Of a stretch of 64,000 nucleotides of DNA, positions 7,152 to 23,849 are shown piece by piece. The notes under the pieces are model-generated. The model saw only the letters and a program-made list of their open reading frames with translations, had not been told where the DNA came from and did no database searches. A program made the position numbers and the translations under genes. Source of the stretch: Acetofilamentum sp. (lineage in GTDB: Bacteria; Hydrothermota; 32-111); the NCBI GenBank assembly GCA_020721805.1, contig DYMB01000007.1, forward strand, positions 30,307 through 94,306, in the 5' to 3' direction. Every line of letters begins with the position of its first letter. Positions within the stretch are counted from its first letter, which is position 1.

Positions 7152-7218
7152 TTATTATATTTAATTTTTATCTTGTAATTTTTTAAATTTTTTATAAAAT
7201 AATAGCCATAGATATAAT

Positions 7219-8265
7219 ATGAAAATAAAAAAATTTTTATTTTTACAATTTTTCTTGCTCTTTTTTATACATATTTTTTCTACTGAGAAATATTTCAGAT
7301 TTTTAAATGTTGATTTTTCAGGTATGGTTGAGGGAAATGAAAAAATAACAAAATCTGAGTATGAAAAGATCGAAGCATATAAAGTGGTTTACAATTCCAC
7401 ACGGCGGATCTGTTCTGTTGAACCGACTTTTTTGGGAAAGAATTTCCAAAAGGATATTTTTAACACAGGTGATTTTATAGGGAAAATAGAGGTATCATAC
7501 TTTGATACTTTTTTCTATTTTGAAGAAGAAAAAATTAAGGCAGAGAAAATGGTTTATTCATTTTACAACATAAATGGTGAAAAAATCGATTTAAAAGGTG
7601 ATATAGAAAAGATGATATTTTTAAAATATAAAATGAACAGTCAGAAGAATATACTCGTTTATTTTGAAAATCGATATAAAGAAAAAGTTTTAAATTTTGA
7701 CAAAGCGAAGATTACCAACATTAGAGTGAAAGATGAAAAGTTTAAAAAAATAATGGAAAAAACTTTTTATATTCAAGATGGTGATAGACTAACATCATAT
7801 CCAAACGAAAAAGGTTTTGAAAAAATTATAAGGGTTGAATACCCTGATTCATCTATGGATTCTTTTAAGTTATGGAGAGAAGAGAAATTTAACATAAAAA
7901 AAGTTGAAAAATTATATGAGGAACCTTATACGATTTTGAAAATTAAAGGTTGGGTTGAAGAAAAAAGTGTGGGGATACTCTATAAATGTATATATTTTGA
8001 TGAACTTGGTTATGTAAACAGGATAGTTTTTCTTGATTCTTTACAAAAGCCGATGGATGGTGATTCTGGTTATTCTATGAAATTGATAAAAAGAAATAAA
8101 AATTTTTCTATTGCTTCCATAGAATATTTTTCCTCGGATAATAAATATAAATCAATTATGCCACCCACTTCAAAACATAATGGAACTCCTCTTTACAGAT
8201 ATTTGCTGGAAAGATACATATACGATGATGAAAACAACCTTTTGGGGATTGAAAGGATAGAATGA
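7219..8265 (+). CDS. hypothetical secreted protein (signal peptide; possible YD-like beta-hairpin motifs)
   Basis: The N-terminus MKIKKFLFLQFFLLFFIHIFS looks like a signal peptide. It is the first gene of the envelope island. Motifs such as IYFDELGYVNRIVF and RYIYDDENNLLGIERIE resemble YD-type repeats only weakly. Confidence 0.55.
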   Translation: MKIKKFLFLQFFLLFFIHIFSTEKYFRFLNVDFSGMVEGNEKITKSEYEKIEAYKVVYNSTRRICSVEPTFLGKNFQKDIFNTGDFIGKIEVSYFDTFFYFEEEKIKAEKMVYSFYNINGEKIDLKGDIEKMIFLKYKMNSQKNILVYFENRYKEKVLNFDKAKITNIRVKDEKFKKIMEKTFYIQDGDRLTSYPNEKGFEKIIRVEYPDSSMDSFKLWREEKFNIKKVEKLYEEPYTILKIKGWVEEKSVGILYKCIYFDELGYVNRIVFLDSLQKPMDGDSGYSMKLIKRNKNFSIASIEYFSSDNKYKSIMPPTSKHNGTPLYRYLLERYIYDDENNLLGIERIE

Positions 8266-9386
8266 AGAAAAGTAAAAATATTCTTATTGTTAACTGGAGA
8301 GAGTTAAAAAATCCACTTTATGGTGGAGCTGAGATTCATATTACAAAGATTGCAGAATTCCTTGCAAAGGATCATAATGTTTTCTTTCTTTCTTCCTCTT
8401 ATGTTGGTTGCACCGATTACGAAAAAAATGGTGTTAAATATATTCATTTTGGAAAAGAGTATCTGTTTAACTTCTCGGTAATTTTTAACTTAAAAAGGAT
8501 TTTGAAAAATTATAGTATAGACCTTATCATTGAAGATATCAACAAATTGCCATTCTTTACTCCCCTGTTTACAAAAATTCCTGTATTTGTTATAGTTCCA
8601 CACATTTTTGGAAAAACTATTTTTAAACAGACCAATTTTGTTTTTGGTTTCTATATTTATATTTTCGAGAAATTTATACCCTTTGTATATAAGAATACAA
8701 TTTTTGAAGTCATTTCGAACTCTACAAAAGATGATCTGGTTAAAAGAGGTATAAAGCCAGACAAAATTTTTGTTATAGAATGCGGTATAGATGAGAAATT
8801 TTTTACAGATAGATATACAAAAAACGAGTTTCCTCAGATATGTTATGTTGGAAGATTAAAGAAATATAAATCAATAGATCATCTCATACTTGCTTTTCGA
8901 AAGGTAAAAGAAAAGATTAGAAATGTGAAACTATACATAGTTGGAACAGGTGATTATGAAATTAAATTAAAAAGACTTGTTGAAAATCTTAAACTTCATG
9001 ATGATGTAATTTTTACAGGTTATGTTTCCGAGGAAGAAAAAATAAAAATTTTACAGGAGAGTTGGATATCTGTTTATCCTTCCTTTATCGAGGGATGGGG
9101 TATAGTAAACATAGAATCCAATGCGCTTTCCACTCCTGTAATTTCTTCTAATGTTATGGGGCTAAAGGATTCTGTTAAAGATAATTTTTCTGGCTTATTA
9201 TATGAATATGGAAATATAGAAGAACTTTCTGAAAAAATTTTATTTCTTCTTAACAACAAAAAAATTCTTAAAAATTTTGAAAAAAATTCTGTTGAATGGG
9301 CAAAAAATTTTACATGGGAAAAGACTGGAAGAGAATCCCAAATCCTTATAGAGAACTTTTTAGGTATTGGACCTATTGACTTTTAA
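8262..9386 (+). CDS. glycosyltransferase family 4 (GT-B, Glycos_transf_1 type)
   Basis: N-terminal GGAEIH nucleotide-sugar GT4 signature. C-terminal EGWGIVNIE matches the E-x7-E motif, and GLKDSVKDNFSGLL is also present. ATGA overlap with the upstream gene. Confidence 0.85.
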   Translation: MKKSKNILIVNWRELKNPLYGGAEIHITKIAEFLAKDHNVFFLSSSYVGCTDYEKNGVKYIHFGKEYLFNFSVIFNLKRILKNYSIDLIIEDINKLPFFTPLFTKIPVFVIVPHIFGKTIFKQTNFVFGFYIYIFEKFIPFVYKNTIFEVISNSTKDDLVKRGIKPDKIFVIECGIDEKFFTDRYTKNEFPQICYVGRLKKYKSIDHLILAFRKVKEKIRNVKLYIVGTGDYEIKLKRLVENLKLHDDVIFTGYVSEEEKIKILQESWISVYPSFIEGWGIVNIESNALSTPVISSNVMGLKDSVKDNFSGLLYEYGNIEELSEKILFLLNNKKILKNFEKNSVEWAKNFTWEKTGRESQILIENFLGIGPIDF

Positions 9387-9404
9387 TATAATAAAATTTA
9401 AAAT
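9376..9404 (+). promoter_or_regulatory. sigma70-type promoter, predicted leaderless start at ATG 9412 (TTGACT-17-TAAAAT-7-ATG)
   Basis: TTGACT at 9376-9381 and TAAAAT at 9399-9404. Only 7 nt (TTATTTA) lie before the ATG and there is no Shine-Dalgarno. It lies across the 3' end of the GT4 gene. Confidence 0.5.
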
Positions 9405-9411
9405 TTATTTA

Positions 9412-10830
9412 ATGGTAAAAAAAATTATATTATCATTTATATTTTACACCTCAATCAAAATTTTGATTTTTTCACAATGGTCAAACCAGATAAAAATATG
9501 GGAATGGGGAGTTGCATATTTCCAACCTAACGCATCTCATCTTTTTGTTTCCGATACTCTTGGGAATTTGCATCTTGGTTGGTATGATACTTCAGGTGAT
9601 GTTTATTATTGTATAAGAAAGCAAAAATTCAATGGAAGCGAATGGGTTTATGATGGGACAAGATATGATCAACCAGAATCAGGTTCCAACTATTATCGTT
9701 TTTCCTGGATGCCAACATTATCTATGGATGAAGATGGAAGGTTTTTATTTATTTGGGAAAGTCGACAGGATGGGAATTTTAACCTGTTCGGTCGTTATTT
9801 TGATGGTTCTCTACTCTCTTCGATTTTTCAGATAACCGCTACATCTTCAAACACCTGGTTTCCAAAATCTTTTTATAGAAACCATAAACATCATTTTATA
9901 TTTTTAGATGATTCAACGGGGGTATTTAATATATACTATTCTTTTTTTAATTCAACTGTAAATACATTCGAACGTTTAACCAACTCCAATGTAAATTGTG
10001 TAAATACAGATTTTTTTGTTTATCCCAACGATGATATTTCAATAATATATACAAAGGAAAGGGATGGTTACCAGAATCTTTACAATTTGAGAAGAATCAA
10101 CAATGAATGGCAAAATGAAAATCTTGTATTCGGTATCTCTTCAGATGTTTATTATCCCAATTTGATCTCTGATGGTTTTAACGAGTTTATCCTTTTTACA
10201 CTTTTTACAAATGGTTTAAACCAACTTTATATAACAAGGTATCTAAATGGAAACTGGACAACACCGAAATTGTTATCCGATGGCAATGCGAATATTTATT
10301 ATCCAACCGGGGTAATAAAGAATGGTAAAATTCATATTCTTTATGTTTCGGATACATATTTTTTTGGTGATCTCTATCATCTTATATATGATTTTAATAA
10401 CGAAAAGATTGAAGAAAAAAATTTAATAGCACATCATGACACATCTTTTATAATGACCCCACAGGTAACTCTTGATAAAAATGGAAATGTTCATGTTATC
10501 TATATTTTAAATGATGAAACTCCACAATCCTCCAATTGGCCAAACAACATATACTGGTTATATTACACAGCTTCTAAAGATGAATTTAATTTTTCAAAAG
10601 AGAAGCCCTATTCCATTTTAAAGGATTCTAAAAATGTAACGATAAATTTTAAAAAAGCCCAGGAATATACGGTCAGCGTTTATAATATTTCTGGAACATT
10701 GTTAAAAAAATTTAAGGTAAATTCCCCGACCTTTATTTTTGAATTTTCAAAGCATCATTCTGGTATCTATTTTATCACTGTAGGAAATGACGAATACATA
10801 TGGAAAGAAAAGATTGTGGTTATAAAATAG
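9412..10830 (+). CDS. secreted beta-propeller-like repeat protein with T9SS C-terminal sorting domain
   Basis: Signal peptide MVKKIILSFIFYTSIKILIFSQ. About 6-7 blade-like repeats each end in aromatic runs (GNLHLGWYD..VYYC, FNIYYSF, QNLYNL, NQLYITRY, GKIHILYVSD, GNVHVIYIL). The C-terminus has a Por-tail pattern (see 10609..10827). The start is moved from ORF-track 9367 (TTG) to ATG 9412. Confidence 0.7.
   Translation: MVKKIILSFIFYTSIKILIFSQWSNQIKIWEWGVAYFQPNASHLFVSDTLGNLHLGWYDTSGDVYYCIRKQKFNGSEWVYDGTRYDQPESGSNYYRFSWMPTLSMDEDGRFLFIWESRQDGNFNLFGRYFDGSLLSSIFQITATSSNTWFPKSFYRNHKHHFIFLDDSTGVFNIYYSFFNSTVNTFERLTNSNVNCVNTDFFVYPNDDISIIYTKERDGYQNLYNLRRINNEWQNENLVFGISSDVYYPNLISDGFNEFILFTLFTNGLNQLYITRYLNGNWTTPKLLSDGNANIYYPTGVIKNGKIHILYVSDTYFFGDLYHLIYDFNNEKIEEKNLIAHHDTSFIMTPQVTLDKNGNVHVIYILNDETPQSSNWPNNIYWLYYTASKDEFNFSKEKPYSILKDSKNVTINFKKAQEYTVSVYNISGTLLKKFKVNSPTFIFEFSKHHSGIYFITVGNDEYIWKEKIVVIK
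10609..10827 (+). other. T9SS C-terminal sorting domain (CTD) coding segment
   Basis: YSILKDSKNVTINFKKAQEYTVSVYNISGTLLKKFKVNSPTFIFEFSKHHSGIYFITVGNDEYIWKEKIVVIK. It shows the typical pattern of V.VYN..G.LL, a ...SGIYF..V segment and a ...K.VV.K terminal strand. Confidence 0.65.
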
Positions 10831-13800
10831 TTTTATTACTATTTTTGATACTATTCGGTTTCAACCTTTTTTCTAAATTTATAACAAATGAAGAGAAAGG
10901 GAAGATCATAGTTAAGTATTTCCCTGAAGAGAATGATACAACGAAAATATTAATTTTGCCACCATCCGATATAAATGTTAAGGTTAACCCTTCAGGTTTC
11001 GAAAAGTTAGTAATGGGAACACCTTTCTATTTTAAAGATTTTCATATTCTACCTTTAAAACCTTTTAAAGAAAAATATGAAGTTTTAATAACATATAATC
11101 CTGTTAAATATAAAGGAAGGATCGTTAAGCCAGACGAAACCACTCTTAAAATTTTGAGAGGGATAACCATAAATGAAGCAGACCTTTTGAAAAATATCAA
11201 GCCAAGAAGTGTAAATGAAAAAAAGTTTGAATATGATGGAACACCTTTGTTTAAGATAAAAATTTCAAAATCCGGATTATACAGAGTCTTCTATGATGAT
11301 ATAGTGAATAAAACTGGAATAGTTCTTTCTTCTTATGATCCAAACTGTTTTAAACTCTATAACAAAAATGTCGAAATCCCATTAAATTTTTATGGAACCG
11401 GAGATGGGATTTTCGGAAATGGAGATTTTTTTGAATTTTATGGTGAAAGAAAGAGCGGAGAAAATACCTATTATGATAAATACCAGTTAGATAATGTATA
11501 TGTTTTTGTAGTGGGTGGGAAGAATGGAATAAGGTATGTTTTTGATGGAGAGTTTTTTTATGACACTTTGTTGGATTCAACCATATCATCGTTTCAAAAA
11601 ACTACTCATATCGAAGAGGATTCTTTCTACTCTCCTCTTGGAGGACGAACTACCATAGATACATCCGATCTTTGGTTTATGTCAACCATCAATTCATCGG
11701 ATCCTTACTCATTTGATCTTTCATTTTTAAATAGAGATACAACCTATAATAAATTTTATTTTTCATCACTTTTTCATGGTTTTTCATATAACCTTCTTAT
11801 AAATCCAGATCATGTTGTAGGGCTTTATATAAACGATTCTTTATACGATACCATAAGATGGGATGATCTTTCATCATATTTGTATATAAATGATACTATA
11901 GATCTGTTCCTGGATACAATAAACATAAAATTAAAAGTAATAGGAGGGGATTCACTCAGTCTCGGTTTAAACTTTATTGAATATGGCTATTTTGAACAAC
12001 TTATAATGGAAAATGGAAAACTGGATTTTGATATTTCCAATATAAGTTTTGGAAAATATAAATTTCATATAAAAGGTTTACATTCTTCCGATGTGAAAAT
12101 TTACAGAAAGGATTTGAAACTCTTAACAAATTTTGTAACGGTATTTAATTCTCTTGAAGGAAACTATGATCTTTATTTTACAGATGAGATTTTTACCACA
12201 CCTGTGCATTATTCTGTTTATCAAAACTCAAATTTTCTTGTTCCGGATACGATGGAGACTTTTAAAAATGTACTTCTGCAAAATTCTTCAAATGAGGGGA
12301 ACTACATAATTATAGTTGATCAAAAATTGAAGGATAAAGCTTCTCAACTTGCTACTCTTTTTTCCAGTAAAAATAAGGTTTTTGTCGCTGGGACCGAAGA
12401 AATTTATGATGAATTCAATTATGGTTTCAGAGGAGTTAAACCTATCAAAGATTTTATCGTTGCAGCATACAACAACTGGCAGGTTCCGCCTTCACATATT
12501 CTTCTTTTAGGGGATGGAACGCCGGATAACAACAACCATTTAAAACTTTTCGATTACGGTATACCTGCACCTTACTATTATGAAAATTCAGCCTATTCAC
12601 CCGCACTCATTGCATCCGACAATTATTATGCAGCGATAGTTGGGGATGATCCGGTTGAAGATGTATCGATTTCAAGATTTCCCATAAGAAGTGAGTTTGA
12701 GATCGATATCGCAATAAACAAGGTGAAACATTTTATTGATTGGAAAAATTCTGGCATTTTTAATCTGAAATTTATTTTTGGATACGATACGACTCCCCCT
12801 GGTTTAGGATTACCCTCTTATGTTGATGCTAAATACCAATCCTTAAAACTCGCAAATATGTTGCCCGAATATATCGGGGTTGATTTTATGGCAAATCTTT
12901 ATGATAATAATGGCGATTTTATAAATCAACTCGATTATGGCGCATCGATTTTGAACATCTATGCACATGGTGCTTCCCAATCTATAGGAAGTGGAGTCTA
13001 TCTTAGAAAAACTGATATATTAAGGATGAACAACATCAATAGACTACCGTTTGTAAAAGTTTACTCTTGTGATACTGGCTATTACGATGAAATTTACAGA
13101 GAAGAACAATCAATTGGGGAAACCTTTGTTCTTGCACCTTTTGGAGGTTCTATAGCGTATTATGGTTCTGCAACGGCAAGTACCGATAATCTTAATAATG
13201 CTTTAGGCGAATCAAATTTCAGGCAATTGGCGTATAATGGCATAAAGAATATAGGCGAGATGATACTTTATGGAGAATTGATGTTCTTTGTTAATTCCAG
13301 TGTTTTTGGAACAGGAAATGTTGACGATCCGAATGTATACGAGATAAAAAATTATGGGCTTCTTGGAGTAAATTTTATAGATTTAAAAATACCGGATATT
13401 TCATACTCAAATTCATGTTCTCTATCAACATATACCATATCCCCAAAAGATACTTTAACCATATTCTGTTCTGATTCCAATTTAAAGGATGGTTTTCTAC
13501 AAACGGTAATGCTCGATGATGAAAGAAGGATGCTTTCCTTTGATAACTCAAATTTAACTAACGGTTTTGGAGAAAATACACTTATTATACCCGATACTCT
13601 TAAAAACTCTTCCGTTGTGATCTCTACAGTTGCATATACTCAGGATACATCCCTACTTTATCTTTCATATCCATCAGTTAACAGTGATGGGATCAAAAAT
13701 TTTTACATCCTTCCATCTTTACCCGATACTTTAGAGAGTTTTAAAATTTACGCGAAAAAGGGTGGGAAAAACATTAAAAATATAACAGCATATTATAAAT

Positions 13801-15299
13801 ATCCCAATTCAACAAGTTACAATAGTTTTGTAATGTTAAAAGATACTGTTGATACAACATTATACTATACCGCTTCGCTTGCACCTATAAAAGCAAAAAA
13901 ATCTTTTTATGATTATTTCAGTTACTACATATATTATACAGATACACTTGAAACTTTTTCATTTACAACTCCAGTTAAGAAAATTTTAATTCCACCGTAT
14001 CCTGATGTAAGAATATATCAGAATCCATATCTTTCATTTAAAGATGATGCTCCAGCACTTACGGTCAAAATTTCAAATGCTGGAGAAAGAAAAAGCACTG
14101 ATCTTTTGGTCAGTTTTTTTGTTATAGACGAAAACGATGATACCCTTTTGATAGGTGTTGATACTGTCGATCTTGAAAGTGGAGAAACTAAGGAATCCAA
14201 AATTAAGATAGATAAAAATTATTTTCAAAAAAAGATTTTTATCTATGCTGCAAAAGATACTTTGAATTTCCCTGATAGAAATTTTTCAAACAACAAGATT
14301 TTCGATACTTCATTTGATAATATATATTCTTATATTTATGGTTCGCCCATGGTCGATTCGCTTTTAACCTATTATAATTTTAATATTGTTAACGAAGGAC
14401 AGCAAAATCAAGATACAAATCTTATGATTCTATCCAGAGAGGAATCTGTTATAACATCGCAATCGCTCGAGATTTTAAGTGAAGATGAAAATAATCTACT
14501 TTACAGAATCCGAGTTTTAAAACCTGAACTTAACAGCAGGGTTAAACTTTTCCCTGATCCCGATTTTCATCCCTCATTTATTTTGAGATATGATTCACTT
14601 TCAAACAACTATATTTTTGTTTCAAACGAGAAGAGTGATACCGTCTATTATACTCTTAACAACTATTCTGACAGATTTATTATAGGTAGATGGAACGACA
14701 CGATTCCCCCTGAAATCAAGATCTTTGTTGAAAACAAAGAAATATTTTCAAAAACGATTTTGTTAAATTCAATAGATTTTGGAATCACCATCGAAGACGA
14801 TGAGGGAATTGATATAGGTAGTATAAAAATAGTTGTTGATGGTGATACTCTTTCAAAAGATGAATATAAAACAAGTGATCAGACAGTTTTAAAAACTATT
14901 CCGATAAAATTGAACAGATATCTTGACAACGGTGATCATAAACTGGAGGTTTTCTGTAACGATATATATGCCAATTCATCAAGTCAGATTTACGAATTTC
15001 AAGTTTCAAATCAATTCAGAATAATAAATCTTGCTAATTTTCCAAACCCTGTGACAGGTGGAAGAACAAAAATAGTTTGTGAATTTTCGAAAGATCCAGA
15101 AAATTCTATTGTGAAAATTTACACTTCAAGTGGAAAATTGTTTAAAGAATATGAACTGACCTATTTAAAGGATAGATTCTATTCTATAGATCTCCAAATG
15201 TCCGATTTTCAAAATGGAACCTATTTTTATGTGGTTGAAGCCATTAAAGATAATGAAAGGATCAGATCAAAGGTTCAAAAGATGAGTCTTTTAAAATGA
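10800..15299 (+). CDS. C25-family (gingipain/PorU-like) cysteine peptidase, 1499 aa, with CARDB-like domain and T9SS CTD
   Basis: Hydrophobic N-terminus KIVLLLFLILFGFNLFS. Candidate catalytic His is in ILNIYAHGASQS (codon 723, nt 12966-12968). Candidate catalytic Cys is in VKVYSCDTGYYD (codon 757, nt 13068-13070). A CARDB-like segment reads ALTVKISNAGERKSTDLLVSFFVIDEN...LESGETKESKIKI. A C-terminal Por-tail is present. Confidence 0.75.
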   Translation: MERKDCGYKIVLLLFLILFGFNLFSKFITNEEKGKIIVKYFPEENDTTKILILPPSDINVKVNPSGFEKLVMGTPFYFKDFHILPLKPFKEKYEVLITYNPVKYKGRIVKPDETTLKILRGITINEADLLKNIKPRSVNEKKFEYDGTPLFKIKISKSGLYRVFYDDIVNKTGIVLSSYDPNCFKLYNKNVEIPLNFYGTGDGIFGNGDFFEFYGERKSGENTYYDKYQLDNVYVFVVGGKNGIRYVFDGEFFYDTLLDSTISSFQKTTHIEEDSFYSPLGGRTTIDTSDLWFMSTINSSDPYSFDLSFLNRDTTYNKFYFSSLFHGFSYNLLINPDHVVGLYINDSLYDTIRWDDLSSYLYINDTIDLFLDTINIKLKVIGGDSLSLGLNFIEYGYFEQLIMENGKLDFDISNISFGKYKFHIKGLHSSDVKIYRKDLKLLTNFVTVFNSLEGNYDLYFTDEIFTTPVHYSVYQNSNFLVPDTMETFKNVLLQNSSNEGNYIIIVDQKLKDKASQLATLFSSKNKVFVAGTEEIYDEFNYGFRGVKPIKDFIVAAYNNWQVPPSHILLLGDGTPDNNNHLKLFDYGIPAPYYYENSAYSPALIASDNYYAAIVGDDPVEDVSISRFPIRSEFEIDIAINKVKHFIDWKNSGIFNLKFIFGYDTTPPGLGLPSYVDAKYQSLKLANMLPEYIGVDFMANLYDNNGDFINQLDYGASILNIYAHGASQSIGSGVYLRKTDILRMNNINRLPFVKVYSCDTGYYDEIYREEQSIGETFVLAPFGGSIAYYGSATASTDNLNNALGESNFRQLAYNGIKNIGEMILYGELMFFVNSSVFGTGNVDDPNVYEIKNYGLLGVNFIDLKIPDISYSNSCSLSTYTISPKDTLTIFCSDSNLKDGFLQTVMLDDERRMLSFDNSNLTNGFGENTLIIPDTLKNSSVVISTVAYTQDTSLLYLSYPSVNSDGIKNFYILPSLPDTLESFKIYAKKGGKNIKNITAYYKYPNSTSYNSFVMLKDTVDTTLYYTASLAPIKAKKSFYDYFSYYIYYTDTLETFSFTTPVKKILIPPYPDVRIYQNPYLSFKDDAPALTVKISNAGERKSTDLLVSFFVIDENDDTLLIGVDTVDLESGETKESKIKIDKNYFQKKIFIYAAKDTLNFPDRNFSNNKIFDTSFDNIYSYIYGSPMVDSLLTYYNFNIVNEGQQNQDTNLMILSREESVITSQSLEILSEDENNLLYRIRVLKPELNSRVKLFPDPDFHPSFILRYDSLSNNYIFVSNEKSDTVYYTLNNYSDRFIIGRWNDTIPPEIKIFVENKEIFSKTILLNSIDFGITIEDDEGIDIGSIKIVVDGDTLSKDEYKTSDQTVLKTIPIKLNRYLDNGDHKLEVFCNDIYANSSSQIYEFQVSNQFRIINLANFPNPVTGGRTKIVCEFSKDPENSIVKIYTSSGKLFKEYELTYLKDRFYSIDLQMSDFQNGTYFYVVEAIKDNERIRSKVQKMSLLK
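15015..15296 (+). other. T9SS C-terminal sorting domain (type A / FlgD-Ig-like) coding segment
   Basis: FRIINLANFPNPVTGGRTKIVCEFSKDPENSIVKIYTSSGKLFKEYEL...FQNGTYFYVVEAIKDNERIRSKVQKMSLLK. NFPNPV, VKIYTSSGKL and GTYFYVV are hallmark CTD motifs. Confidence 0.75.
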
Positions 15300-16264
15300 A
15301 AAAATTTTTACTTTTTTTTATAATATTTTTTATTTCAAATATTTTTATATTGCCATTTGAAATACTTTCAATAAACTTCTCTCCTTTTGGCGAAGCCACA
15401 AAGGGTGCAATATTAACCTATCATTCTCAAAACATACCTCTATTTTTTTATAACCCTTCAAACTCTTCAAGCGATTATTATTCTGAAAGAAGTGATTTTA
15501 CAGTTTTTTACGAACATAAATTTTTGTTTATGGATTTATCCAGTTACAACAGTTTTGTTTTAAACTTTCCCGAGATCAAAAATATGAATATTGGAATTCA
15601 GATCATAAATCAAAGCATAAATACTATACCCATATATCCAGAATATGAGGATTCAATCTCTTTTGTTCCTGAAGGATATTTTTCAGATGACTGTTATGTC
15701 GGTTTACTCAATTTCTCATATCAAATAAAACAGAGTGGAGAAAAAAGGTTATATGAAATGTTCTTTGGAGGAAACATAAAAACCATCCTACACAGAATTT
15801 ACACAAAGAGGGGAACGGGGATAGGTATGGATCTGGGAACAACTTTTAGATTATCTCTTGATAATTATAAACTACCCGGAATTTTTTTAATCTCTTTTGT
15901 GTACAAAGATGTTGGGAAAACAAAGGTTATCTGGGATACTGATTCGAACACGGTTTTTTCAAAAGATGCCAGCTTTATTCCATCTCTTGGTTACGAAATA
16001 AAATTTGATAGAATAAAATCCAAATTTTTTACAGAGATTAGTTATAATGTTTACGAAAGAACTATTCCGGTTTCCATTATATATTCTTACTCAAATCTTT
16101 TTGGAATATTCACTGGATACGAATATCAGCCAGGCATGGATATTGATTTAAAACAAGCAGGTGTTGGAGTCTATTTGAATCTGTTAAAATTTTCCGTGTC
16201 CTATTCTTTTACACTTTATGATATTGGATACACAAATTCTTTAGGATTATCATATATATTTTGA
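15296..16264 (+). CDS. outer-membrane beta-barrel protein, PorV/PorQ-family-like
   Basis: It has a signal peptide, alternating beta-strand-like sequence, and a C-terminal ...LGLSYIF ending in Phe. The N-terminal GEATKGAILTYHSQNIPLFFYNPS resembles the GAR..AMGGA......NPAG motif of PorV/PorQ proteins. ATGA overlap with the C25 gene. Confidence 0.45.
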   Translation: MKKFLLFFIIFFISNIFILPFEILSINFSPFGEATKGAILTYHSQNIPLFFYNPSNSSSDYYSERSDFTVFYEHKFLFMDLSSYNSFVLNFPEIKNMNIGIQIINQSINTIPIYPEYEDSISFVPEGYFSDDCYVGLLNFSYQIKQSGEKRLYEMFFGGNIKTILHRIYTKRGTGIGMDLGTTFRLSLDNYKLPGIFLISFVYKDVGKTKVIWDTDSNTVFSKDASFIPSLGYEIKFDRIKSKFFTEISYNVYERTIPVSIIYSYSNLFGIFTGYEYQPGMDIDLKQAGVGVYLNLLKFSVSYSFTLYDIGYTNSLGLSYIF

Positions 16265-16266
16265 TT

Positions 16267-17202
16267 ATGGAAACAAAAAACATTTTAAGTCTTTCAGAAA
16301 ATAATAAATTGTTTGTAATATCTGGAAATTTTCTGGGGGATATAAAGGAGAATATAAAACTCATAAAGGAAAGATATGTATTAAAGGGCTTTGAAGATTT
16401 TGATTATACTGAAATTTATATAGATGAAATCGATGAACAAGAAATTTATAATAAAATTTTAACACCACCTTTTGTATCGGGGAAGAAAATAATAGTAATT
16501 AAAGATGGTTTAAAAATTTCAAAAAAACTTGCAGAGGAAATTGAAAATTTACTCGAAGATACTTTTTTAAAAACCCTGTTGATAATTCTTTGTATAGACG
16601 AGGAAAGTTTTACTCCATATGAGATCAAAAAGAATGTAGAACAAAAATTTAAAAAGGCTATCCATTTTTATAGCGAAGCTGACCCAAAATATCTTAAAAA
16701 CATAACTTTTCAAAGGATAAAAAATTATGCACAGGGAAGAGAGATGTTTCTGGATGATAATATTATAAAGCGGTTGATAGATTTTACAGATGGCAATATA
16801 TATTCTATATACAATTTGATAAATATGTACTATATGGAAGGGAAACCACTTAAACTGCAAAACAGCGAAAATTTTAAAAATAATGTTGAATTTTACGATG
16901 CTTATATTTTTGATTTTCTTGAAAGTTTTTCCAACAGGGATCTTAAAAAAGCGTTAAATTCTTATAGAAAATGCCTTGAATGGAAAATCATTACCAACGA
17001 TGGTTTGATCCTTTTGCTTCTAAAACAGATCTCTGAACAGAGGGAAGATTATAAAAATAGATTTAAACATTGGGATCGGATGATGTTAAAAAAGAGTTTT
17101 GAAACACTCTATAATCTTTTAAAGGATATTAGAAAATATAACGCAATATTTGCAAAAATATTAGTTGAGGAATCAATAATAAAAATAATAAAGGGGGAAT
17201 AA
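16267..17202 (+). CDS. holA: DNA polymerase III delta subunit-like (HolA-like)
   Basis: The N-terminal layout is typical of HolA: LFVISGNFLGDIKENI...DFDYTEIYIDEID.QEIYNKILTPPFVSGKKIIVIKDG...LENLLED....TLLIILC. The length is about 310 aa. The ATG at 16267 is preferred over the TTG at 16261. Confidence 0.55.
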   Translation: METKNILSLSENNKLFVISGNFLGDIKENIKLIKERYVLKGFEDFDYTEIYIDEIDEQEIYNKILTPPFVSGKKIIVIKDGLKISKKLAEEIENLLEDTFLKTLLIILCIDEESFTPYEIKKNVEQKFKKAIHFYSEADPKYLKNITFQRIKNYAQGREMFLDDNIIKRLIDFTDGNIYSIYNLINMYYMEGKPLKLQNSENFKNNVEFYDAYIFDFLESFSNRDLKKALNSYRKCLEWKIITNDGLILLLLKQISEQREDYKNRFKHWDRMMLKKSFETLYNLLKDIRKYNAIFAKILVEESIIKIIKGE

Positions 17203-18035
17203 TGGATTTAAAGAATCTCATGGAACAAAAGGAAGAGATAGAAAAAAAACTTGTTAAACTGGAAGAGATTAAAATTCAGATAAAACCTCAAATTTATGAG
17301 AAGATAAAAAGAGAGTACCAGGAAAAAATAGACGATATTTTAGAGGCGTTAAAAAAGGATCAGGCTTATTTAAAAGAGCAACTTGAATCGATAAAGATAA
17401 CTAAATCTCAGTTTCTTTCTGAACTTGAAAAGTTGGATTTAGAACTTGAAGAATTAAATGTAAGAAAGTTATTATCTGATATCTCTGAACAGGATTATTA
17501 TGCTAAAAATAATGATCTGGAAGAAAAAAGATCTCATATTATGGAAAATATAAAATCACTTGAAGAGAAGGAAAATGAAATATCCCGGTTTGTAGTTGTT
17601 GATAATGAAACTAAGGAATTTAAAGAAAAGATAATATATGAGAATAATCTTGTTTACCCTGAAAGTAGGATAGAACAAAATCAACCCCAGCAAGAAGAAA
17701 CGATGAAAGAAAGATTCTATGGTGAGATTCAAACTCCTGTGGAAAATAAGCCGAATCCTCTTGATAATATTATTCAACCCGATATAGTAAAAGAGCAGGA
17801 TTTTGATTTAGGTAAAGATCTTCCCCAAAATGAAAAACTTGTTAAGAACAGCCCTCTTGAAACAAATAATAATAAAGCACAAAACGAAAACGAAGAAATT
17901 TTTGAAAAAGATTTTGATATGGATCTGAGAGGAGAGAATGTGGAGACCATAGAGGGACTGGTCTGCCCGAAATGCGGGCATATCAACAGATCCGATCTTT
18001 TTAACTGTGAAAAGTGTGGCGCTGAATTGTTATAA
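17202..18035 (+). CDS. coiled-coil protein with C-terminal zinc-ribbon
   Basis: Heptad-rich N-terminal half, an acidic/polar middle, and a C-terminal CPKCGHINRSDLFNCEKCGAEL (CxxC...CxxC). Coupled to its neighbours (TAATG at both ends). Confidence 0.55.
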   Translation: MDLKNLMEQKEEIEKKLVKLEEIKIQIKPQIYEKIKREYQEKIDDILEALKKDQAYLKEQLESIKITKSQFLSELEKLDLELEELNVRKLLSDISEQDYYAKNNDLEEKRSHIMENIKSLEEKENEISRFVVVDNETKEFKEKIIYENNLVYPESRIEQNQPQQEETMKERFYGEIQTPVENKPNPLDNIIQPDIVKEQDFDLGKDLPQNEKLVKNSPLETNNNKAQNENEEIFEKDFDMDLRGENVETIEGLVCPKCGHINRSDLFNCEKCGAELL

Positions 18036-19390
18036 TGGGTTTTAAAACTCTCACTTTTTATACATTCTCAAATTATTTAAACATTTTTTTATCCCTGGTT
18101 CAGGGTTTCTTTTTATTAAAAATTCTTTCCGTTGAAGAGATGGGTTCTTTCAGTCAATTCAAAATAATTCTAAACTATCTTATGCTTTTTAATCTTGGCA
18201 CATTAAATTCCTTTATGATACTTATCCCTTCTTCTTCAGATCAGCAAAAAAATGTTTATAAAAATAAGGTGTTTACAGTAAACTTTTTTATTTATCTTAT
18301 AGTTTCTTTATCGATTTTATCTTTTTTTTTCTATAAAAAGGATCAGATGATTCTTTTTTTATCCCCAGCCATATTTTTTTATGCTATAAAAGATTTTCCA
18401 TCATATTTTTTAAAATCTGATGGTAGATTTAAAAAGTATTCTTTAAATCTTTTATTTTCTCAAACCATATTTCTTTTTTTGATCATTATCTTATCCTTAA
18501 GATTGAAACTTGTCGGTGTATATCTTTCCGTTATCATATTTTCACTGGTTTCTCTATTTTTTGGTATTTTTTTGATAGGGGGAATAAAGTTTGATTTTCC
18601 ACTTCCCGTTGAAACGATATTTTTTATAAAAAAAGGTTTCAACATTTATTTCGTTGGATTTTTAAATCAGATTTTTGCTAATTTTGAAAGATTGTTTTTG
18701 AGTTTTATTCTGATAAAGGAAAGATTTGCCGTCTATGCCACTTCAGTTTTTTTTCTATCCTTCATTCAGATGTTCCCCTCATCCATAGTACAATATTTTT
18801 TACCTGATTTTGTAAGAAACGCAAAAAAATATAATCAAATAAGAATAAGTTTAATATTCAGTTCCATAAGTGTTTTAACATTTTTTTTCATAATCTTCTC
18901 ATTTTTATTTTTAAAAATCATTACGGCTATTTATTTTAAAAATTATGTTGATTCGGTAAAAATTTTCGGTATCCTTTCAACTACAGTGTTCTTTGATATT
19001 TTTTTCTATCTTCTTTATAACAAACTTCTTTCGATCGAAAAATTAAAAATCTATATTTTTATACAGATCGTTGGATCTATAATGTTGGTTGTCGGAATAA
19101 TTTTTTATTCCATTCTTGTGGTTAACATCGATCTTGTAAAATTTTCTTATTTTTTTGTGATGCTGAAGGGTCTCCATTTTGTCTTCGTACTCTTTTTCTT
19201 AAACTTCTTTTTTAGAAAAATAAAAGTGGATACAGTTTTAACATCGATCGTATCCATTTTATTTTTTTTAGTTATGAAAATAGAGATGTTTACAAATAGG
19301 ATTATACTATCAGCGTTTATCGTGATATCTTTACTATTTTTAATCAATTTTAAAAAGATTCTATTATGGATGAAAAAAAATTTAAATTGA
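18035..19390 (+). CDS. polysaccharide flippase, Wzx/MOP-family-like multi-pass membrane protein
   Basis: 451 aa with about 12-14 hydrophobic segments and the typical flippase size. It sits in a glycosyltransferase/polymerase context. Confidence 0.65.
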   Translation: MGFKTLTFYTFSNYLNIFLSLVQGFFLLKILSVEEMGSFSQFKIILNYLMLFNLGTLNSFMILIPSSSDQQKNVYKNKVFTVNFFIYLIVSLSILSFFFYKKDQMILFLSPAIFFYAIKDFPSYFLKSDGRFKKYSLNLLFSQTIFLFLIIILSLRLKLVGVYLSVIIFSLVSLFFGIFLIGGIKFDFPLPVETIFFIKKGFNIYFVGFLNQIFANFERLFLSFILIKERFAVYATSVFFLSFIQMFPSSIVQYFLPDFVRNAKKYNQIRISLIFSSISVLTFFFIIFSFLFLKIITAIYFKNYVDSVKIFGILSTTVFFDIFFYLLYNKLLSIEKLKIYIFIQIVGSIMLVVGIIFYSILVVNIDLVKFSYFFVMLKGLHFVFVLFFLNFFFRKIKVDTVLTSIVSILFFLVMKIEMFTNRIILSAFIVISLLFLINFKKILLWMKKNLN

Positions 19391-20220
19391 ATCTGATAGT
19401 TGTTCTGTACGAAAAAAAGAAAGCGGAAAAGTTTTTTCATAACAATTATTTTATTTTCAAAAACAGCGGTGTTTCGTTATTGATAGTTGATAATGGTGAG
19501 AACAAGGAATATATACCAAAAGATTTAAACTTTTTTTATATAAAAACTTCTCAGAATACAGGATACGGAAAAGCGGTTAATCTGGCTTTTAAATATGTTG
19601 AGAGTGATTATTTCCTAATATCCAACGATGATATTATATTCGAAAAGAATTTTTTTTCAAAACTTTTAAAAAAATTGAACTTTTACAGGGAAAATGAATT
19701 CAAACTTGTCGGTTTCAATGTCTTTTCCAATAAAAGTTTTAAAAAGGGGATTCAACGAAAATATTATGATTATTTCGTCATACTATACCATTTTTCGTTT
19801 TTACCATTCTTCTTGTCGATCTTTGAAAAGAATAATAATGGTTATGTTGGAGTGTGGGAAGGTATACATTTTTATAAAAGTTCAAAAGAGGTATATGGAG
19901 TGAATGGGGCTTTAATGCTTGTTGAAAAGAAAAGTTTTGAAGGTGTGAAAATGTTTGATGAAAATTATTTCTTAACATATGAGGAAACGGATCTTTTCAT
20001 AAGATTTAAAAAAAGAAACTATAAAATATATTATGATTCATCGTTGAAAATTTTGCACGATCATTCGATATCCGCTTCAAAGGAATCTACCAGATACTCA
20101 TTTTCTTCTATGGATTATTTTTTGAAAAAAAATTATGGTAAAAAAATCGGTTTTCTTGTTAAAATTTATTTAAAAATTTTTTTATTTTTAAAGGGTTTGT
20201 TAAAATTAAAAACAGAATAA
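19366..20220 (+). CDS. glycosyltransferase family 2 (GT-A)
   Basis: LIVVLYEKK...LLIVDNGENKEY...QNTGYGKAVNLAF...LISNDDIIF, a GT2 DxD-type layout similar to rhamnosyltransferase-type GT2 enzymes. Confidence 0.8.
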   Translation: MDEKKFKLNLIVVLYEKKKAEKFFHNNYFIFKNSGVSLLIVDNGENKEYIPKDLNFFYIKTSQNTGYGKAVNLAFKYVESDYFLISNDDIIFEKNFFSKLLKKLNFYRENEFKLVGFNVFSNKSFKKGIQRKYYDYFVILYHFSFLPFFLSIFEKNNNGYVGVWEGIHFYKSSKEVYGVNGALMLVEKKSFEGVKMFDENYFLTYEETDLFIRFKKRNYKIYYDSSLKILHDHSISASKESTRYSFSSMDYFLKKNYGKKIGFLVKIYLKIFLFLKGLLKLKTE

Positions 20221-20228
20221 CTAAAAAA

Positions 20229-21521
20229 ATGAACAGTTTTAAAATTATAATTTTATTTTTTTCAGCGATCTTTTATCTCACTTTTGTTGTTTATTTAAAA
20301 AATTTTCTTTTCTTCTTTCCATTTTTACTTTTGATATTACTAATTCTACTCTATTTAAATTTTAAAAACCATAATTTTTTTATAACCTTTATGCTTTTTT
20401 ATGGTTCATTTTCAAGATTGTTTTATTTTCTATCACAGGGTTTTATCTATAATCTTGTTTTTACCATCCCAATTTTCTATACTTTAATTTTTTTTGATGA
20501 AATTTTCATCACTTTCAAAAGATTACCAAAAATTTTAAAAATTTACATTCTTGTCCACATATCTTTTATTTTAACAACAACGATCTACGCTAAAAATTTT
20601 GATCCTGTAAACATTCTTCTTATTTTGAATTATTATATTTTACCATTCTTTCTTTTTCTTTATATAAAAGATTTTACAAAAAATCTATACCTTGTTTTAA
20701 AATATACTTTCATATTTATTCTAATCTATTCGATATCGCAGTATTTTGGATTCTATACTTTTTTTGAAGATTATTATGTGAAAAATGTTTCATATCATCA
20801 GTATACTTCCTTGAAACTCGGTTCAATGAACAGACCATTTTCATCTTTTTCCTCTGTTGAAGAGTTTTCAATTTTTTTAGTTTTTTTACCTTTCTTCTTC
20901 TATGATTTTAAAAAGAAAATGTTTTATCTGTTTTCGATTATGGTGGTTTCTCTTTTAATTATTTTTTCTTACAGAACATCTATTTTTATTTTTATCCTTT
21001 TATACTTTTTTCAACTTCTTTTAGAAAAACGGATAAGACAACTTGTAATTTTTTCATTGCTTGTATTATCCCTGATAGTTATTTTTTATAATTTAAAAAT
21101 TGATACCACCATTTACAAAACTGATAATCGACTGAAAACGGTATTGAAACATAATATTGAGCCTTTGAGTAGTGGTTTTAATACATATTCTTTAAAAAAC
21201 AGATTTTTTAAAATTAAAGGGGATTTGTATAAACTTAAAAATAACCCATTTGGAACGGGACTGTTTTTTTCCAGCAGATCCATTTTTCAACATACCGAAG
21301 AGAACATATATGAAACATCTTTTTTCAATCTACTTTTTGCGGGTGGAGTGATAACTATACTTTATTTTGTCCTTTCATTTTATCTGCTATCGGTTTATAA
21401 AAAAACATTTTTTATGCTTATATTTTTTTTCTTTTTTTTATTTACAAATCTTTTTAATTTTCATTTTATCGCACCCGTAATTTTAAAAATGATAATGGAG
21501 AGAAACGATGAAAAGGGGTGA
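20229..21521 (+). CDS. O-antigen polymerase/ligase-like (Wzy/WaaL-type) membrane protein
   Basis: 430 aa, about 10-12 TM segments, one larger loop (KIDTTIYKTDNRLKTVLKHNIEPLSSG...), and a glycan-locus context. Confidence 0.6.
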   Translation: MNSFKIIILFFSAIFYLTFVVYLKNFLFFFPFLLLILLILLYLNFKNHNFFITFMLFYGSFSRLFYFLSQGFIYNLVFTIPIFYTLIFFDEIFITFKRLPKILKIYILVHISFILTTTIYAKNFDPVNILLILNYYILPFFLFLYIKDFTKNLYLVLKYTFIFILIYSISQYFGFYTFFEDYYVKNVSYHQYTSLKLGSMNRPFSSFSSVEEFSIFLVFLPFFFYDFKKKMFYLFSIMVVSLLIIFSYRTSIFIFILLYFFQLLLEKRIRQLVIFSLLVLSLIVIFYNLKIDTTIYKTDNRLKTVLKHNIEPLSSGFNTYSLKNRFFKIKGDLYKLKNNPFGTGLFFSSRSIFQHTEENIYETSFFNLLFAGGVITILYFVLSFYLLSVYKKTFFMLIFFFFFLFTNLFNFHFIAPVILKMIMERNDEKG

Positions 21522-22788
21522 ATTGAAAAAAAAACAGATTGAAAACTATGAATTGACAAAAAAGATGGTGAACGATTTCTTGAAAAAATATGACAGGTAC
21601 AATGCTCTCGAATACTCTTTTTTATGGGCAACCTATAATCTACTCTCAAACGGCAAAAAATATTTCCCCGGTAAGACGAATCCGTTTTCAACAAATGTAA
21701 AACTGAAAAAAAAACATGCAAAGTATTTTATAGTTTTTGGGAGTGTTCCAGAAAAGATAATCAAAAAATTTAGATTAAAAGGTTTTGAAGATGTGAGATT
21801 AGAAATATCAAATTTCCCTATCGGTTTACCGATTGAAAACAGGTTGATCTTTTCAAGAAAAGGGCGAGTATTCCATAACGATCCAGAGATTTCCAAAGAT
21901 GATGATCTTAAAATGTACAAAGAGATCATTGAAGATAATTATTTTGATTTAAAACGGTTTGAAAATACTCTTGATGATCATTTCGGTTCTTTCAAACCAT
22001 CTTTTGTTATCCTTGACGAAGATAGGACAAAATTCAAACGTGTGTGTGTGGAATATTTTAAGAAAAAGAATGTAAAAACATTTATCTTTCAACATGGTCT
22101 TACACCTATTGATAAAGATAACAAGATTCCACTTATGAACGAGTCTTTCGTTCCATTGATCGCCGATCATTTTATCTGTTGGGGGAAAAATTCATTTGAT
22201 TTTATGAAAAATTTTACCAGTGTAGATAATCTCATAATCGGTGGAAATCCAAGCTATGATTTTCATAGGAATTTTCAGGAAAAGGAAATAGATCTTCTTT
22301 TTATAGATCAACAATTTATTGGATTCGAAGAAGAGTTTTATACGGCTTACGAAGAAATATTAAGGTATCTGGAAAATAATGGATTGGATTATAAAATATA
22401 TTTAAGGGGTAAATATAATTTTAATTTTTTAAAACAAATCGTTAAAAAAGGAAAGATTATAAAGTGGAAAAAAAATGGATTATCATATTATCTACAAAAA
22501 AGTAAAATTTCTGCAGGTTTTTACTCTACGGGATTACTGGAATCTCTGATCAATTTTAGACCCATAATGGTTTACGATCACTTAGACAGGGGGAATTTTT
22601 TAGGATTCAAAAATGAGAATATTGCGAAACTTTTCAAAGATGAAGAAGAATTTATTCGTTTTTACAGGATGCTTGATGAGAGCAGATTCAACGATGAAGA
22701 GTTTATAGGTGAGGTGAAAAATTTTGTTGAATATTTTGGTGATGAGTCTGCAAAGATTATTTGTGAAAAGATATTGGAAAGGTTATGA
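21508..22788 (+). CDS. hypothetical cytoplasmic protein, possibly GT-B-like polysaccharide-modifying enzyme
   Basis: 426-aa intact ORF coupled on both sides to glycan genes. There is no TM segment. FIFQHGL and a Rossmann-like alternation hint at a GT-B or capsule-synthesis fold. No firm motif. Confidence 0.4.
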   Translation: MKRGELKKKQIENYELTKKMVNDFLKKYDRYNALEYSFLWATYNLLSNGKKYFPGKTNPFSTNVKLKKKHAKYFIVFGSVPEKIIKKFRLKGFEDVRLEISNFPIGLPIENRLIFSRKGRVFHNDPEISKDDDLKMYKEIIEDNYFDLKRFENTLDDHFGSFKPSFVILDEDRTKFKRVCVEYFKKKNVKTFIFQHGLTPIDKDNKIPLMNESFVPLIADHFICWGKNSFDFMKNFTSVDNLIIGGNPSYDFHRNFQEKEIDLLFIDQQFIGFEEEFYTAYEEILRYLENNGLDYKIYLRGKYNFNFLKQIVKKGKIIKWKKNGLSYYLQKSKISAGFYSTGLLESLINFRPIMVYDHLDRGNFLGFKNENIAKLFKDEEEFIRFYRMLDESRFNDEEFIGEVKNFVEYFGDESAKIICEKILERL

Positions 22789-23849
22789 AAAAGTTAACAT
22801 TCGTTGATCTTTCACCCTTTAGAGGTGGAGCCGAGATTTCACTTGAAAAGTTGATCAACGTTATACCAGAAAATTATGAGATTGAAATGATAGTATCAAG
22901 GGATGATATATGGCTTTTTAAAAGGCATGTTAAATTTTCAACTATAAAAATGGATGAACGATTTTTGCTTCTAAACAAAACTATTAAAAATTTAATATTA
23001 TTCTTTTTTCAGATCGTCAAAAATATCAACAATTTTAAAAGGAAGGATGAACTTTTCTTTACAAACACCTTTAAATCACATTTTGCGATTTTTATGATCA
23101 GCATCTTCTTTGGAAAAACAAGATGGATAGTAATCGAAAGAGATTTTTATGAGAACAGTTTAATAAAATTTTTCAAAAAACTTTTATATAAGAAAACCCT
23201 CGGTGTAATTTTCAATTCAAAGTTTTTAAAGAGAAAATATCATTTTTCAAATTCACAGGTGATATACAATATAGTTGAAAGTAAAACTCTGTCAAAAAAG
23301 GATTTTAAAACTTTTCTTTACATAGGTGATCCTACATATGAAAAAGGATACGACAGGATTTTTGAATTTTTCAGATATATTTACAGTATGAATCATAATT
23401 TCAGACTTACCATAGTTTTGAGGGAAAAAAATTTTTATGGAAAACGGGTTAAAGATATCACGAATATTTCTAAAACAGTGTTTGGCGATTATAATGATAT
23501 TGATAAAATTTTAAAGGAAAGTTCTTTTTTGCTTCTTTTCAATAGGAAAACTGAAACCTTCTCAAGGGTGGTGGCTGAAGGTATGTCATATGGATTGATT
23601 CCTTTTGTATTGAAAGGTAACGGAATGGATGATTATGTTTTCAATCTATACAATGGATTTGTTTTTGAAGAGTATGATCCTGAACTTATTGTAAAAAGTT
23701 TTATGGAAAATTATGATGAAGAAAAATTTCTATTGATGCAAAAAAGATCGTATGAAACGGTTATAAATTTTTTTTCTGAAAAGAATATAAAAATGAGATT
23801 TTTAAATTATTTGGAAGGGAAGTTTAACTTCCCTTCCCGGGGGAGGTAA
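22785..23849 (+). CDS. glycosyltransferase family 4 (GT-B)
   Basis: N-terminal FRGGAEISLEKL. C-terminal ETFSRVVAEGMSYGLIPF matches the E-x7-E motif, and DDYVFNLYNGFVFE is also present. Confidence 0.75.
   Translation: MKKLTFVDLSPFRGGAEISLEKLINVIPENYEIEMIVSRDDIWLFKRHVKFSTIKMDERFLLLNKTIKNLILFFFQIVKNINNFKRKDELFFTNTFKSHFAIFMISIFFGKTRWIVIERDFYENSLIKFFKKLLYKKTLGVIFNSKFLKRKYHFSNSQVIYNIVESKTLSKKDFKTFLYIGDPTYEKGYDRIFEFFRYIYSMNHNFRLTIVLREKNFYGKRVKDITNISKTVFGDYNDIDKILKESSFLLLFNRKTETFSRVVAEGMSYGLIPFVLKGNGMDDYVFNLYNGFVFEEYDPELIVKSFMENYDEEKFLLMQKRSYETVINFFSEKNIKMRFLNYLEGKFNFPSRGR
23813..23837. terminator. perfect GC-rich hairpin at the convergent junction of the envelope island and ftsZ (possible bidirectional terminator or RNA-stability element)
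   Basis: GGAAGGGAAGT-TTA-ACTTCCCTTCC: an 11-bp perfect stem with a 3-nt loop. It lies 12 nt before the GT4 stop and 18 nt beyond the ftsZ stop. No U-tract on either side. Confidence 0.4.

Follow-up and report, generated by a model that had tools for sequence, protein, structure and literature searches.

Is the sugar anchor of a surface protein encoded next to the enzyme that attaches it? The question is raised by a gene block in a 64-kb stretch of contig DYMB01000007.1 (Acetofilamentum sp.; hereafter the window, positions 1-64000), where a C25 cysteine peptidase resembling PorU, the sortase of the T9SS (type IX secretion system), and an outer-membrane barrel resembling PorV stand among genes for glycan assembly. 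Twelve open reading frames (ORFs), all on the + strand, were found exactly at 7219-23849, co-directional and overlapping or abutting as the first-pass annotation had described them, with spacings of -31 to +8 nucleotides (nt) at their 11 junctions. Close homologues of the encoded proteins bear the annotation candidate division WOR-3 or TA06, and all genomes compared are metagenome-assembled. A small genome is indicated by one relative, whose assembly is a single contig of 1.39 Mb; the GC (guanine plus cytosine) content of the window is about 30%. The block is best explained as an operon-like and conserved string of genes in a WOR-3/TA06 bacterium with a small genome. That this string works as a sort-and-anchor module, joining a type-IX-style sorting pair to undecaprenyl-linked glycan assembly, is the reading that we favour, with somewhat better than even confidence; it is drawn from the genes and not proven.

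The sorting pair and its companion protein

The 1499-residue product of the fourth gene carries a Peptidase_C25 domain (PF01364) at residues 502-856 (score in Table 1), and its best NCBIfam match is the T9SS sortase PorU (NF033707, 195.3 bits). Positions 7-705 of this model align with residues 150-821 of the protein and include the PorU-specific region upstream of the catalytic domain, whereas the PorU2 model (NF052324) gives 100 bits against a cut-off of 450; throughout the PorU-like family it always scores lower than the PorU model. His723 and Cys757 align with the catalytic dyad of gingipain R and are invariant in 11 homologues. When the profile of these homologues is compared with the PDB, the best solved relative is Porphyromonas gingivalis PorU (6za2, E 1e-50, 175 bits, vs 76 bits for the gingipains), in a two-part match covering residues 374-791 (catalytic) and 901-1154 (the C-terminal 250 residues, including the C-terminal domain, CTD, that serves as sorting signal). 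The last 100 residues taken alone match Por_Secre_tail with 26.2 bits, and orthologues carry PF18962. The protein is about 340 residues longer than P. gingivalis PorU, with extra immunoglobulin (Ig)- or CARDB-like parts, an N-terminal extension of about 150 residues and an insertion of about 400 residues with a faint CARDB signal. Its identification as a PorU-like C25 peptidase with its own CTD, already proposed from the letters alone, is borne out and is well supported by these profile matches.

The next gene overlaps the stop codon of the PorU-like gene by 4 nt, and porU-porV adjacency is known in Bacteroidota. Alone, the 322-residue product of this gene finds no match in the PDB, and direct phmmer searches of both proteins against the PDB missed PorU and PorV, which only the family profiles found. 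A profile search from the barrel gathers 97 relatives, and among the 61 of full length NCBIfam matches are to PorV2 (52), PorV_fam (50), PorQ (47) and PorV (35); the curated PorV/PorQ family models are NF033709, NF033710 and NF033711. An AlphaFold2 (AF2) model built on the relatives' alignment is an all-beta barrel with a pLDDT (predicted local distance difference test) of 93.6 and a pTM (predicted template-modelling score) of 0.86. Its top Foldseek matches are the PorV chains of the Flavobacterium johnsoniae translocon (8gl6_F and 6h3i_F, template-modelling score 0.65), followed by OmpG and FadL, and a hydrophobic leader is visible at the N-terminus of the sequence. The homology to PorV is supported at the level of profiles only: the protein's own PorV_fam score is 19.5 bits, while its family profile reaches the PorV sequence 6h3i_F with E 6e-16 and 50 of 61 relatives match PorV_fam. 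The earlier proposal of a PorV/PorQ-like protein is thus upheld: on model and profile a PorV-type barrel is well supported, with PorV-like and PorQ-like action not distinguishable.

Directly upstream of the PorU-like gene lies a 487-residue ORF, called from TTG 9367, whose probable start is ATG 9412, where the signal peptide (MVKK) begins. Its product had been described as a beta-propeller with a T9SS CTD. The CTD part of that label stands (Por_Secre_tail 27.5 bits, gathering cut-off 27; TIGR04183 31.5 bits, cut-off 23), and for the propeller there is only the match of the family profile to designed beta-propellers in the PDB, in a list that also holds a series of T9SS CTDs. PorZ (5m11) is matched in its CTD only (E 0.055), as is PorU, the protein can accommodate no more than one propeller, and a single-sequence AF2 model is unusable (pLDDT 42.7). 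A CTD gene of this type stands directly upstream of the PorU-like gene throughout the clade described below, and also in three loci elsewhere, L023 of Edwardsbacteria, L013 and L086, which include another WOR-3 lineage (L numbers denote compared loci). The protein is a candidate cargo, or else it may assist as PorZ does; this PorZ-like role is an idea, not a result. In one metagenome-assembled genome (L013:454-23421), two PorV-like genes flank the PorU-like gene, which lies amid five propeller-plus-CTD paralogues.

Conservation of the block within one clade

To what extent is this gene order kept? An 11-gene core (glycosyltransferase of family 4 (GT4), CTD protein, PorU-like, PorV-like, holA, zinc ribbon, Wzx-like, GT2, Wzy_C-like, 426-residue protein, GT4) recurs in seven long relatives (L001, L005, L006, L009, L010, L011 and L012); only in L012, which has little upstream sequence, is the first GT4 not seen. 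As far as their contigs reach, the core is also found in the metagenome loci L090-L094 and L096, L090 being the same TA06 scaffold as L010 in another record, and in L095 the 426-residue protein and the GT4 are kept and followed by a 1225-residue C25 gene. In every clade relative found, the glycan genes are therefore syntenic with the C25/PorV pair, as the first-pass annotation had suggested that they should be if the block were more than a chance arrangement.

This order is kept while identity falls to 60% for FtsZ and 38% for the PorU-like protein. Over the same range the upstream flank is remodelled, the genes for the 348-residue and tetratricopeptide repeat (TPR) proteins being replaced by a divergent 1083-residue C25 gene, and in L006 three extra genes are inserted after the first GT4. 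That the flank is remodelled and the block kept argues for retention of the block, still within one clade. The 1083-residue protein is a second, very divergent C25 peptidase (L005:3075-6326 and L006:1640-4891, both on the - strand; Peptidase_C25 47.6 bits, no NCBIfam match). A search of metagenome contigs with the 426-residue protein returned seven loci, all of the same clade and always in the order Wzy, 426-residue protein, GT4, and this reverse synteny therefore gives no independent information.

The first ORF of the run behaves differently. The 348-residue protein has no Pfam or NCBIfam match and no CTD, its orthologues (about 39% identity) occur only in the four closest loci, and it is absent from L005, L006 and L012. 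It carries an N-terminal signal peptide and is regarded as peripheral to the block.

PorU-like loci in other phyla

A scan of species-representative genomes yielded 79 loci with PorU-like genes, in which ORFs were called and labelled with hidden Markov models (HMMs) that had been built by iteration, starting from the window and annotated loci; these HMMs are insensitive. A PorV-like gene directly follows the long PorU-like gene in 37 of the 52 loci with at least 1.2 kb downstream. Of the 47 loci in which a long PorU-like gene has 3.5 kb or more of sequence downstream, 31 carry polysaccharide genes, a count obtained with the insensitive HMMs and no formal background rate.

The most frequent arrangement, in about 25 loci, is a five-gene module made of PorU-like (about 1650-1700 residues) and PorV-like (about 337) genes, a 250-residue gene that matches no family, a Wza-type SLBB protein of small size (about 162) and a Wzc-like Wzz/GNVR/kinase protein (about 760). 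Its hosts are mostly Cloacimonadota, plus Ca. Kryptonium (Kryptonia) and Calditrichota, and Marinimicrobia have the same module without the 250-residue gene. The PorU-like/PorV-like pair of the module is orthologous to that of the window, at 22-27% identity. Housekeeping genes come after the module; in Cloacimonadota the string runs on into genes for a GHMP kinase, SpoVG, phosphoribosyl pyrophosphate (PRPP) synthase, ribosomal protein L25 and peptidyl-tRNA hydrolase. The 250-residue gene was compared by hhalign with the block's proteins lacking an assigned family, including the zinc-ribbon protein, and no relation was found.

Another example is Zixibacteria SM23_81 (L002:421-11446), whose contig opens at the PorV-like gene, the PorU-like gene not being seen there, and continues with the 250-residue gene, SLBB and Wzc. 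These are followed by an RmlA-like transferase, an NDP-sugar dehydrogenase, a UDP-GlcNAc 3-dehydrogenase-like oxidoreductase, a hexapeptide acetyltransferase, WecB and a DegT aminotransferase. The last five are enzyme classes of the Wbp pathway, among them that of the epimerase WbpI. The Wbp pathway of P. gingivalis, of which WbpA, B, D and E are named, makes the sugar that links T9SS cargo to anionic lipopolysaccharide (A-LPS) (PMC7468200). A third pattern is found in Ignavibacteriaceae, where a PorU-like gene of 1900 residues is preceded by Wzy_C, methyltransferase, GT4, GT2, DegT, WbaP-type transferase and, immediately upstream, a Wzi-like capsule-assembly barrel; GlmS comes after it, and no PorV-like gene does. 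In L025, GT2, GT4, methyltransferase, UDP-sugar dehydrogenase, GT4, BNR propeller and PMT_2 glycosyltransferase genes lie upstream of the pair. As a counter-example, a Mur ligase lies downstream in L019.

The value of the analysis lies mainly in this cross-phylum neighbourhood pattern, which still needs proper statistics, and which gives a hint of joint inheritance of the anchoring enzyme with its sugar anchor. The anchoring genes of Porphyromonas were found one at a time by genetics, and we know of no anchor identified beyond a few members of the Bacteroidota. Should the sortase gene, in these other phyla, usually be accompanied by polysaccharide genes, the neighbourhood alone could nominate the anchor glycan pathway in uncultured lineages; such a linkage would also suggest that glycan anchoring is ancestral to the system, and would point to new accessory genes.

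A sort-and-anchor reading and its competitors

How could the genes of the block act together? In the mechanism proposed, CTD proteins would cross the outer membrane via a translocon encoded elsewhere, and the PorV-like barrel would collect them and hand them over to the PorU-like enzyme, predicted to remove the CTD and to transfer the new C-terminus to the sugar of a glycolipid or polysaccharide. The anchor glycan would be built by the neighbouring transferases, flipped by the Wzx-like protein and polymerised or ligated by the Wzy_C-like protein, and the secreted protein would thereby be anchored on the cell surface, as in the A-LPS anchoring of P. gingivalis. The upstream CTD protein may be the main cargo, or a helper that presents the glycan in the manner of PorZ, and the holA and zinc-ribbon genes would be passengers. 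Among the glycan genes, the two GT4s and the GT2 score above the Pfam gathering cut-offs, as their earlier labels implied, and the first GT4 keeps 56-73% identity in six of the seven long relatives. The 426-residue protein has no Pfam or NCBIfam match, and an hhalign comparison with the C-terminal half of the GT4 (probability 77%) suggests that it is possibly a GT-B-like enzyme.

Several points weigh against this reading. By score, neither member of the pair belongs to the curated PorU or PorV family: the PorU-like protein has 195 bits against a cut-off of 420 (its relatives in other phyla, at 243-390 bits, are likewise below it), and the barrel has 19.5 bits (E 6e-4) against 90. The Wzx- and Wzy/WaaL-like labels find slight backing, Polysacc_synt giving 24.3 bits, below the gathering cut-off of 28.2, with an L001 orthologue that carries PF01943, and Wzy_C giving 16.4 bits, far below 31.7, with weak PF04932 matches in orthologues. 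The description of the glycan genes as a complete flippase/polymerase/glycosyltransferase set does not hold: there is one Wzy_C-like protein and not a polymerase plus a ligase, the initiating phosphoglycosyltransferase is absent, none of the 12 block products matching Bac_transf or a WecA-type family, no Wzz and no sugar-nucleotide enzymes are found among these twelve products, and no amino-sugar pathway genes in the block. The holA-like gene (TIGR01128 score in Table 1, below the cut-off of 80) and the zinc-ribbon gene sit mid-block; the former, in the same position in all clade members, is probably a housekeeping passenger, and the product of the latter keeps 33-53% identity across the clade. 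Co-transcription is implied only by a tight packing that is genome-wide, unrelated housekeeping genes elsewhere in the window being packed just as tightly. No T9SS core gene (SprA/Sov, PorK/L/M/N) was found in the 64 kb of the window or in the 10 kb beyond, a look-up that covered 74 kb, or about 5% of the genome. In Edwardsbacteria L004, a contig that begins with the PorV-like gene, only housekeeping genes come after this gene; L004 and L023 come from the same assembly, L023 ends just after its PorU-like gene, and the two may join. Finally, the argument is made from genes alone, all of them from metagenome-assembled genomes.

Could the adjacency be without function? On this account, the main competitor, to which we give a minor but appreciable probability, the pair serves secretion and the glycan genes produce something unrelated to it (an O-antigen, a capsule or an S-layer glycan), the two being kept together only by a streamlined genome that seldom rearranges and lines up unrelated genes in long co-directional runs. 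The interruption of the block by the holA and zinc-ribbon genes would fit, and so would the gene packing: of the 36 same-strand junctions elsewhere in the window, 28 likewise measure no more than 10 nt, coding sequence takes up about 98% of the window, the median same-strand gap is -6 nt, and at 40064-49123 unrelated genes abut one another (M23 peptidase, Dus, release factor, LysS and Lol-type ABC genes). The overlapping gene boundaries, singled out in the first-pass annotation, are therefore nothing special, packing being genome-wide, and carry no functional information here. The confinement of the exact Wzx/Wzy block to one clade and the continuation of the Cloacimonadota string straight into housekeeping genes point the same way. 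However, PorU-like genes lie beside three kinds of polysaccharide genes in at least six phylum-level groups, which makes shared inertia unlikely, and within the clade the flank has been remodelled while the block was kept.

A second competitor, which seems improbable to us, is that the pair conjugates proteins to a polymer of capsule or exopolysaccharide (EPS) type, or helps to assemble such a polymer, without a SprA/PorKLMN machine and in the manner of PEP-CTERM/exosortase. It draws on the most widespread partners of the pair, which are SLBB and Wzc-type export genes and not lipopolysaccharide (LPS) genes, on the Ignavibacteriaceae loci with a Wzi-like barrel in front of the PorU-like gene and no PorV-like gene behind it, and on NCBIfam, which calls the related pair PorU2/PorV2 a 'type IX sorting system'; the small genome and the 74 kb devoid of core genes are also in its favour. 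In contrast, the CTD that acts as cargo signal is of the ordinary type A, the barrel has its closest structural counterpart in a PorV taken from a SprA translocon complex, and T9SS components are reported as possibly present in other FCB (Fibrobacterota, Chlorobiota and Bacteroidota) phyla (PMC11285876), while core genes unseen in about 5% of a genome mean little.

Very improbable is the third competitor, a secreted gingipain-like protease that is cargo and not sortase, next to a generic porin: the C25 domain is common to gingipains, a CTD is present as on any cargo, and the protein has its extra length and Ig/CARDB-like parts, but its profile scores far higher on PorU than on gingipains and also aligns with the C-terminal 250 residues of PorU, its alignment to the NCBIfam PorU model begins at model position 7, ahead of the catalytic domain, a PorV-like gene directly follows in most of the loci counted above, and PorU itself retains its CTD (PMC11285876).

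A bolder reading can be held only as doubtful. The pairs and their polysaccharide genes would then form an ancient, self-contained, FCB-wide module for protein-polysaccharide conjugation, the acceptor in many lineages being a capsule or EPS exported by Wza/Wzc and not LPS. In 1.4-Mb genomes it might run without SprA/PorKLMN, and the 426-residue, zinc-ribbon and 250-residue genes would be undiscovered components.

Gene table and genomic surroundings

The genes of the block and the reference loci of the two other patterns are collected in Table 1.

Table 1. Genes of the block in the window, and representative PorU-like loci of other phyla
Feature	Position	Strand	Match or remark
348-residue protein, N-terminal signal peptide	7219..8265	+	no family match; peripheral to the block
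GT4 glycosyltransferase	8262..9386	+	Glycos_transf_1 147 bits, Glyco_transf_4 52.5 bits
Propeller-like repeat protein, signal peptide, T9SS type-A CTD	9412..10830	+	Por_Secre_tail, TIGR04183
PorU-like C25 cysteine peptidase, 1499 residues, own CTD; putative CTD signal peptidase/transpeptidase	10800..15299	+	Peptidase_C25 157 bits
PorV/PorQ-type outer-membrane beta-barrel, 322 residues	15296..16264	+	AF2 model, Foldseek, family profile
holA-like gene (DNA polymerase III delta)	16261..17202	+	DNA_pol3_delta 39.7 bits, TIGR01128 69.9 bits
Coiled-coil protein, C-terminal zinc ribbon	17202..18035	+	Zn_ribbon_3 19.9 bits (weak)
Wzx-like multi-pass membrane protein, candidate flippase of the MOP (multidrug/oligosaccharidyl-lipid/polysaccharide) type	18035..19390	+	Polysacc_synt 24.3 bits, E 2.5e-5
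GT2 glycosyltransferase	19366..20220	+	Glycos_transf_2 42.7 bits
Wzy_C-like multi-pass membrane protein, polymerase or ligase	20229..21521	+	Wzy_C 16.4 bits, E 0.008
426-residue clade-restricted protein, possibly a GT-B-like enzyme	21508..22788	+	no Pfam/NCBIfam match
Second GT4 glycosyltransferase, end of block	22785..23849	+	Glycos_transf_1 52.9 bits
Five-gene module	L007:10001-19515		also L014, L018, L021, L027, L035, L041, L044, L049, L071, L079 and others
Ignavibacteriaceae pattern	L077:1583-17042		same in L047, L054, L057, L068, L076

The locus lies between a divergent TPR gene and a convergent division and cell wall (dcw) cluster. The former (3309-7097, - strand) encodes a 1262-residue all-TPR protein, is separated from the locus by 121 nt and, like the 348-residue gene, occurs only in the closest relatives. 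The latter, complete from ftsZ, ftsA and murB to mraW and mraZ (23855-39978, - strand), has ftsZ (23855-24958, - strand) as its gene nearest the block, and 5 nt separate the stop of the last GT4 from the stop of ftsZ, with no terminator-like hairpin between them. A promoter scan of 6900-24100 gave 136 promoter-like sites for 96 expected, which is uninformative in DNA of 29% GC, and a terminator scan of the same segment found none in any gene junction; Rfam, tRNA and tandem-repeat scans of the window returned nothing relevant. A release factor 2 (RF2) frameshift site was looked for at 44656 and is absent. Farther on, a type IV pilus cluster (56458-63822) comprises two tandem PilB-like ATPases (576 and 587 residues), PilT, PilC and a PilS-like kinase, and continues beyond the window (L088) with a sigma-54 activator, two N_methyl (prepilin-type) proteins and a prepilin peptidase.

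Relation to known systems

Reviews go no further than to call a T9SS possible in other FCB phyla (PMC11285876). The searchable literature yielded nothing about T9SS components of WOR-3/TA06, nor about PorU genes embedded in polysaccharide loci, in agreement with the earlier statement that the arrangement had not been described as a unit. If the favoured reading is true, sorting of the T9SS type would be extended to WOR-3/TA06.

The closest known parallel to the block is the attachment complex of P. gingivalis (PorU, PorV, PorZ and PorQ), in which PorU attaches cargo to A-LPS (PMC7468200, PMC12365241). The window enzyme shares with PorU the C25 His/Cys dyad, the N- and C-terminal regions and a retained CTD, its gene adjoins that of a PorV-type barrel, and the CTD repeat protein could play the part of PorZ; by analogy with the A-LPS anchor, a dependence of the pair on a glycan built by Wzx, Wzy and glycosyltransferases is plausible. 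In contrast to the four-protein complex, the window has one barrel gene and one single-propeller CTD protein that is PorZ-like only in its CTD, its enzyme is about 340 residues longer and scores below the curated cut-offs, and its host belongs to WOR-3/TA06 and not to Bacteroidota. The glycan genes are adjacent in the window, whereas the first-pass annotation described those for A-LPS as scattered; of the P. gingivalis genes, wzx (porS) does adjoin wbpE (porR) (PMC7468200).

PorU2 (NF052324) and PorV2 (NF052325) of NCBIfam, for which no describing publication was found, resemble the present pair as paired PorU-like and PorV-like genes outside the classical set, but all scores here are far below their cut-offs of 450 and 325. 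In the exosortase/PEP-CTERM system of EPS loci, a C-terminal sorting signal and a cleaving or transferring enzyme are found beside glycosyltransferases and Wzx/Wzy- or Wza/Wzc-type genes (PMC7468200, section 20). The window block has the same three traits, a C-terminal signal, a dedicated enzyme and co-located glycan genes; however, exosortase is an unrelated inner-membrane enzyme that recognises a PEP motif plus a transmembrane helix, whereas the window enzyme is a predicted secreted C25 peptidase at the outer membrane. The five-gene module differs from the block in its partners, which are SLBB, a Wzc-like tyrosine kinase and the 250-residue gene in place of Wzx, Wzy and glycosyltransferases, and has no holA or zinc-ribbon gene, yet both place an orthologous PorU-like/PorV-like pair directly beside polysaccharide genes.

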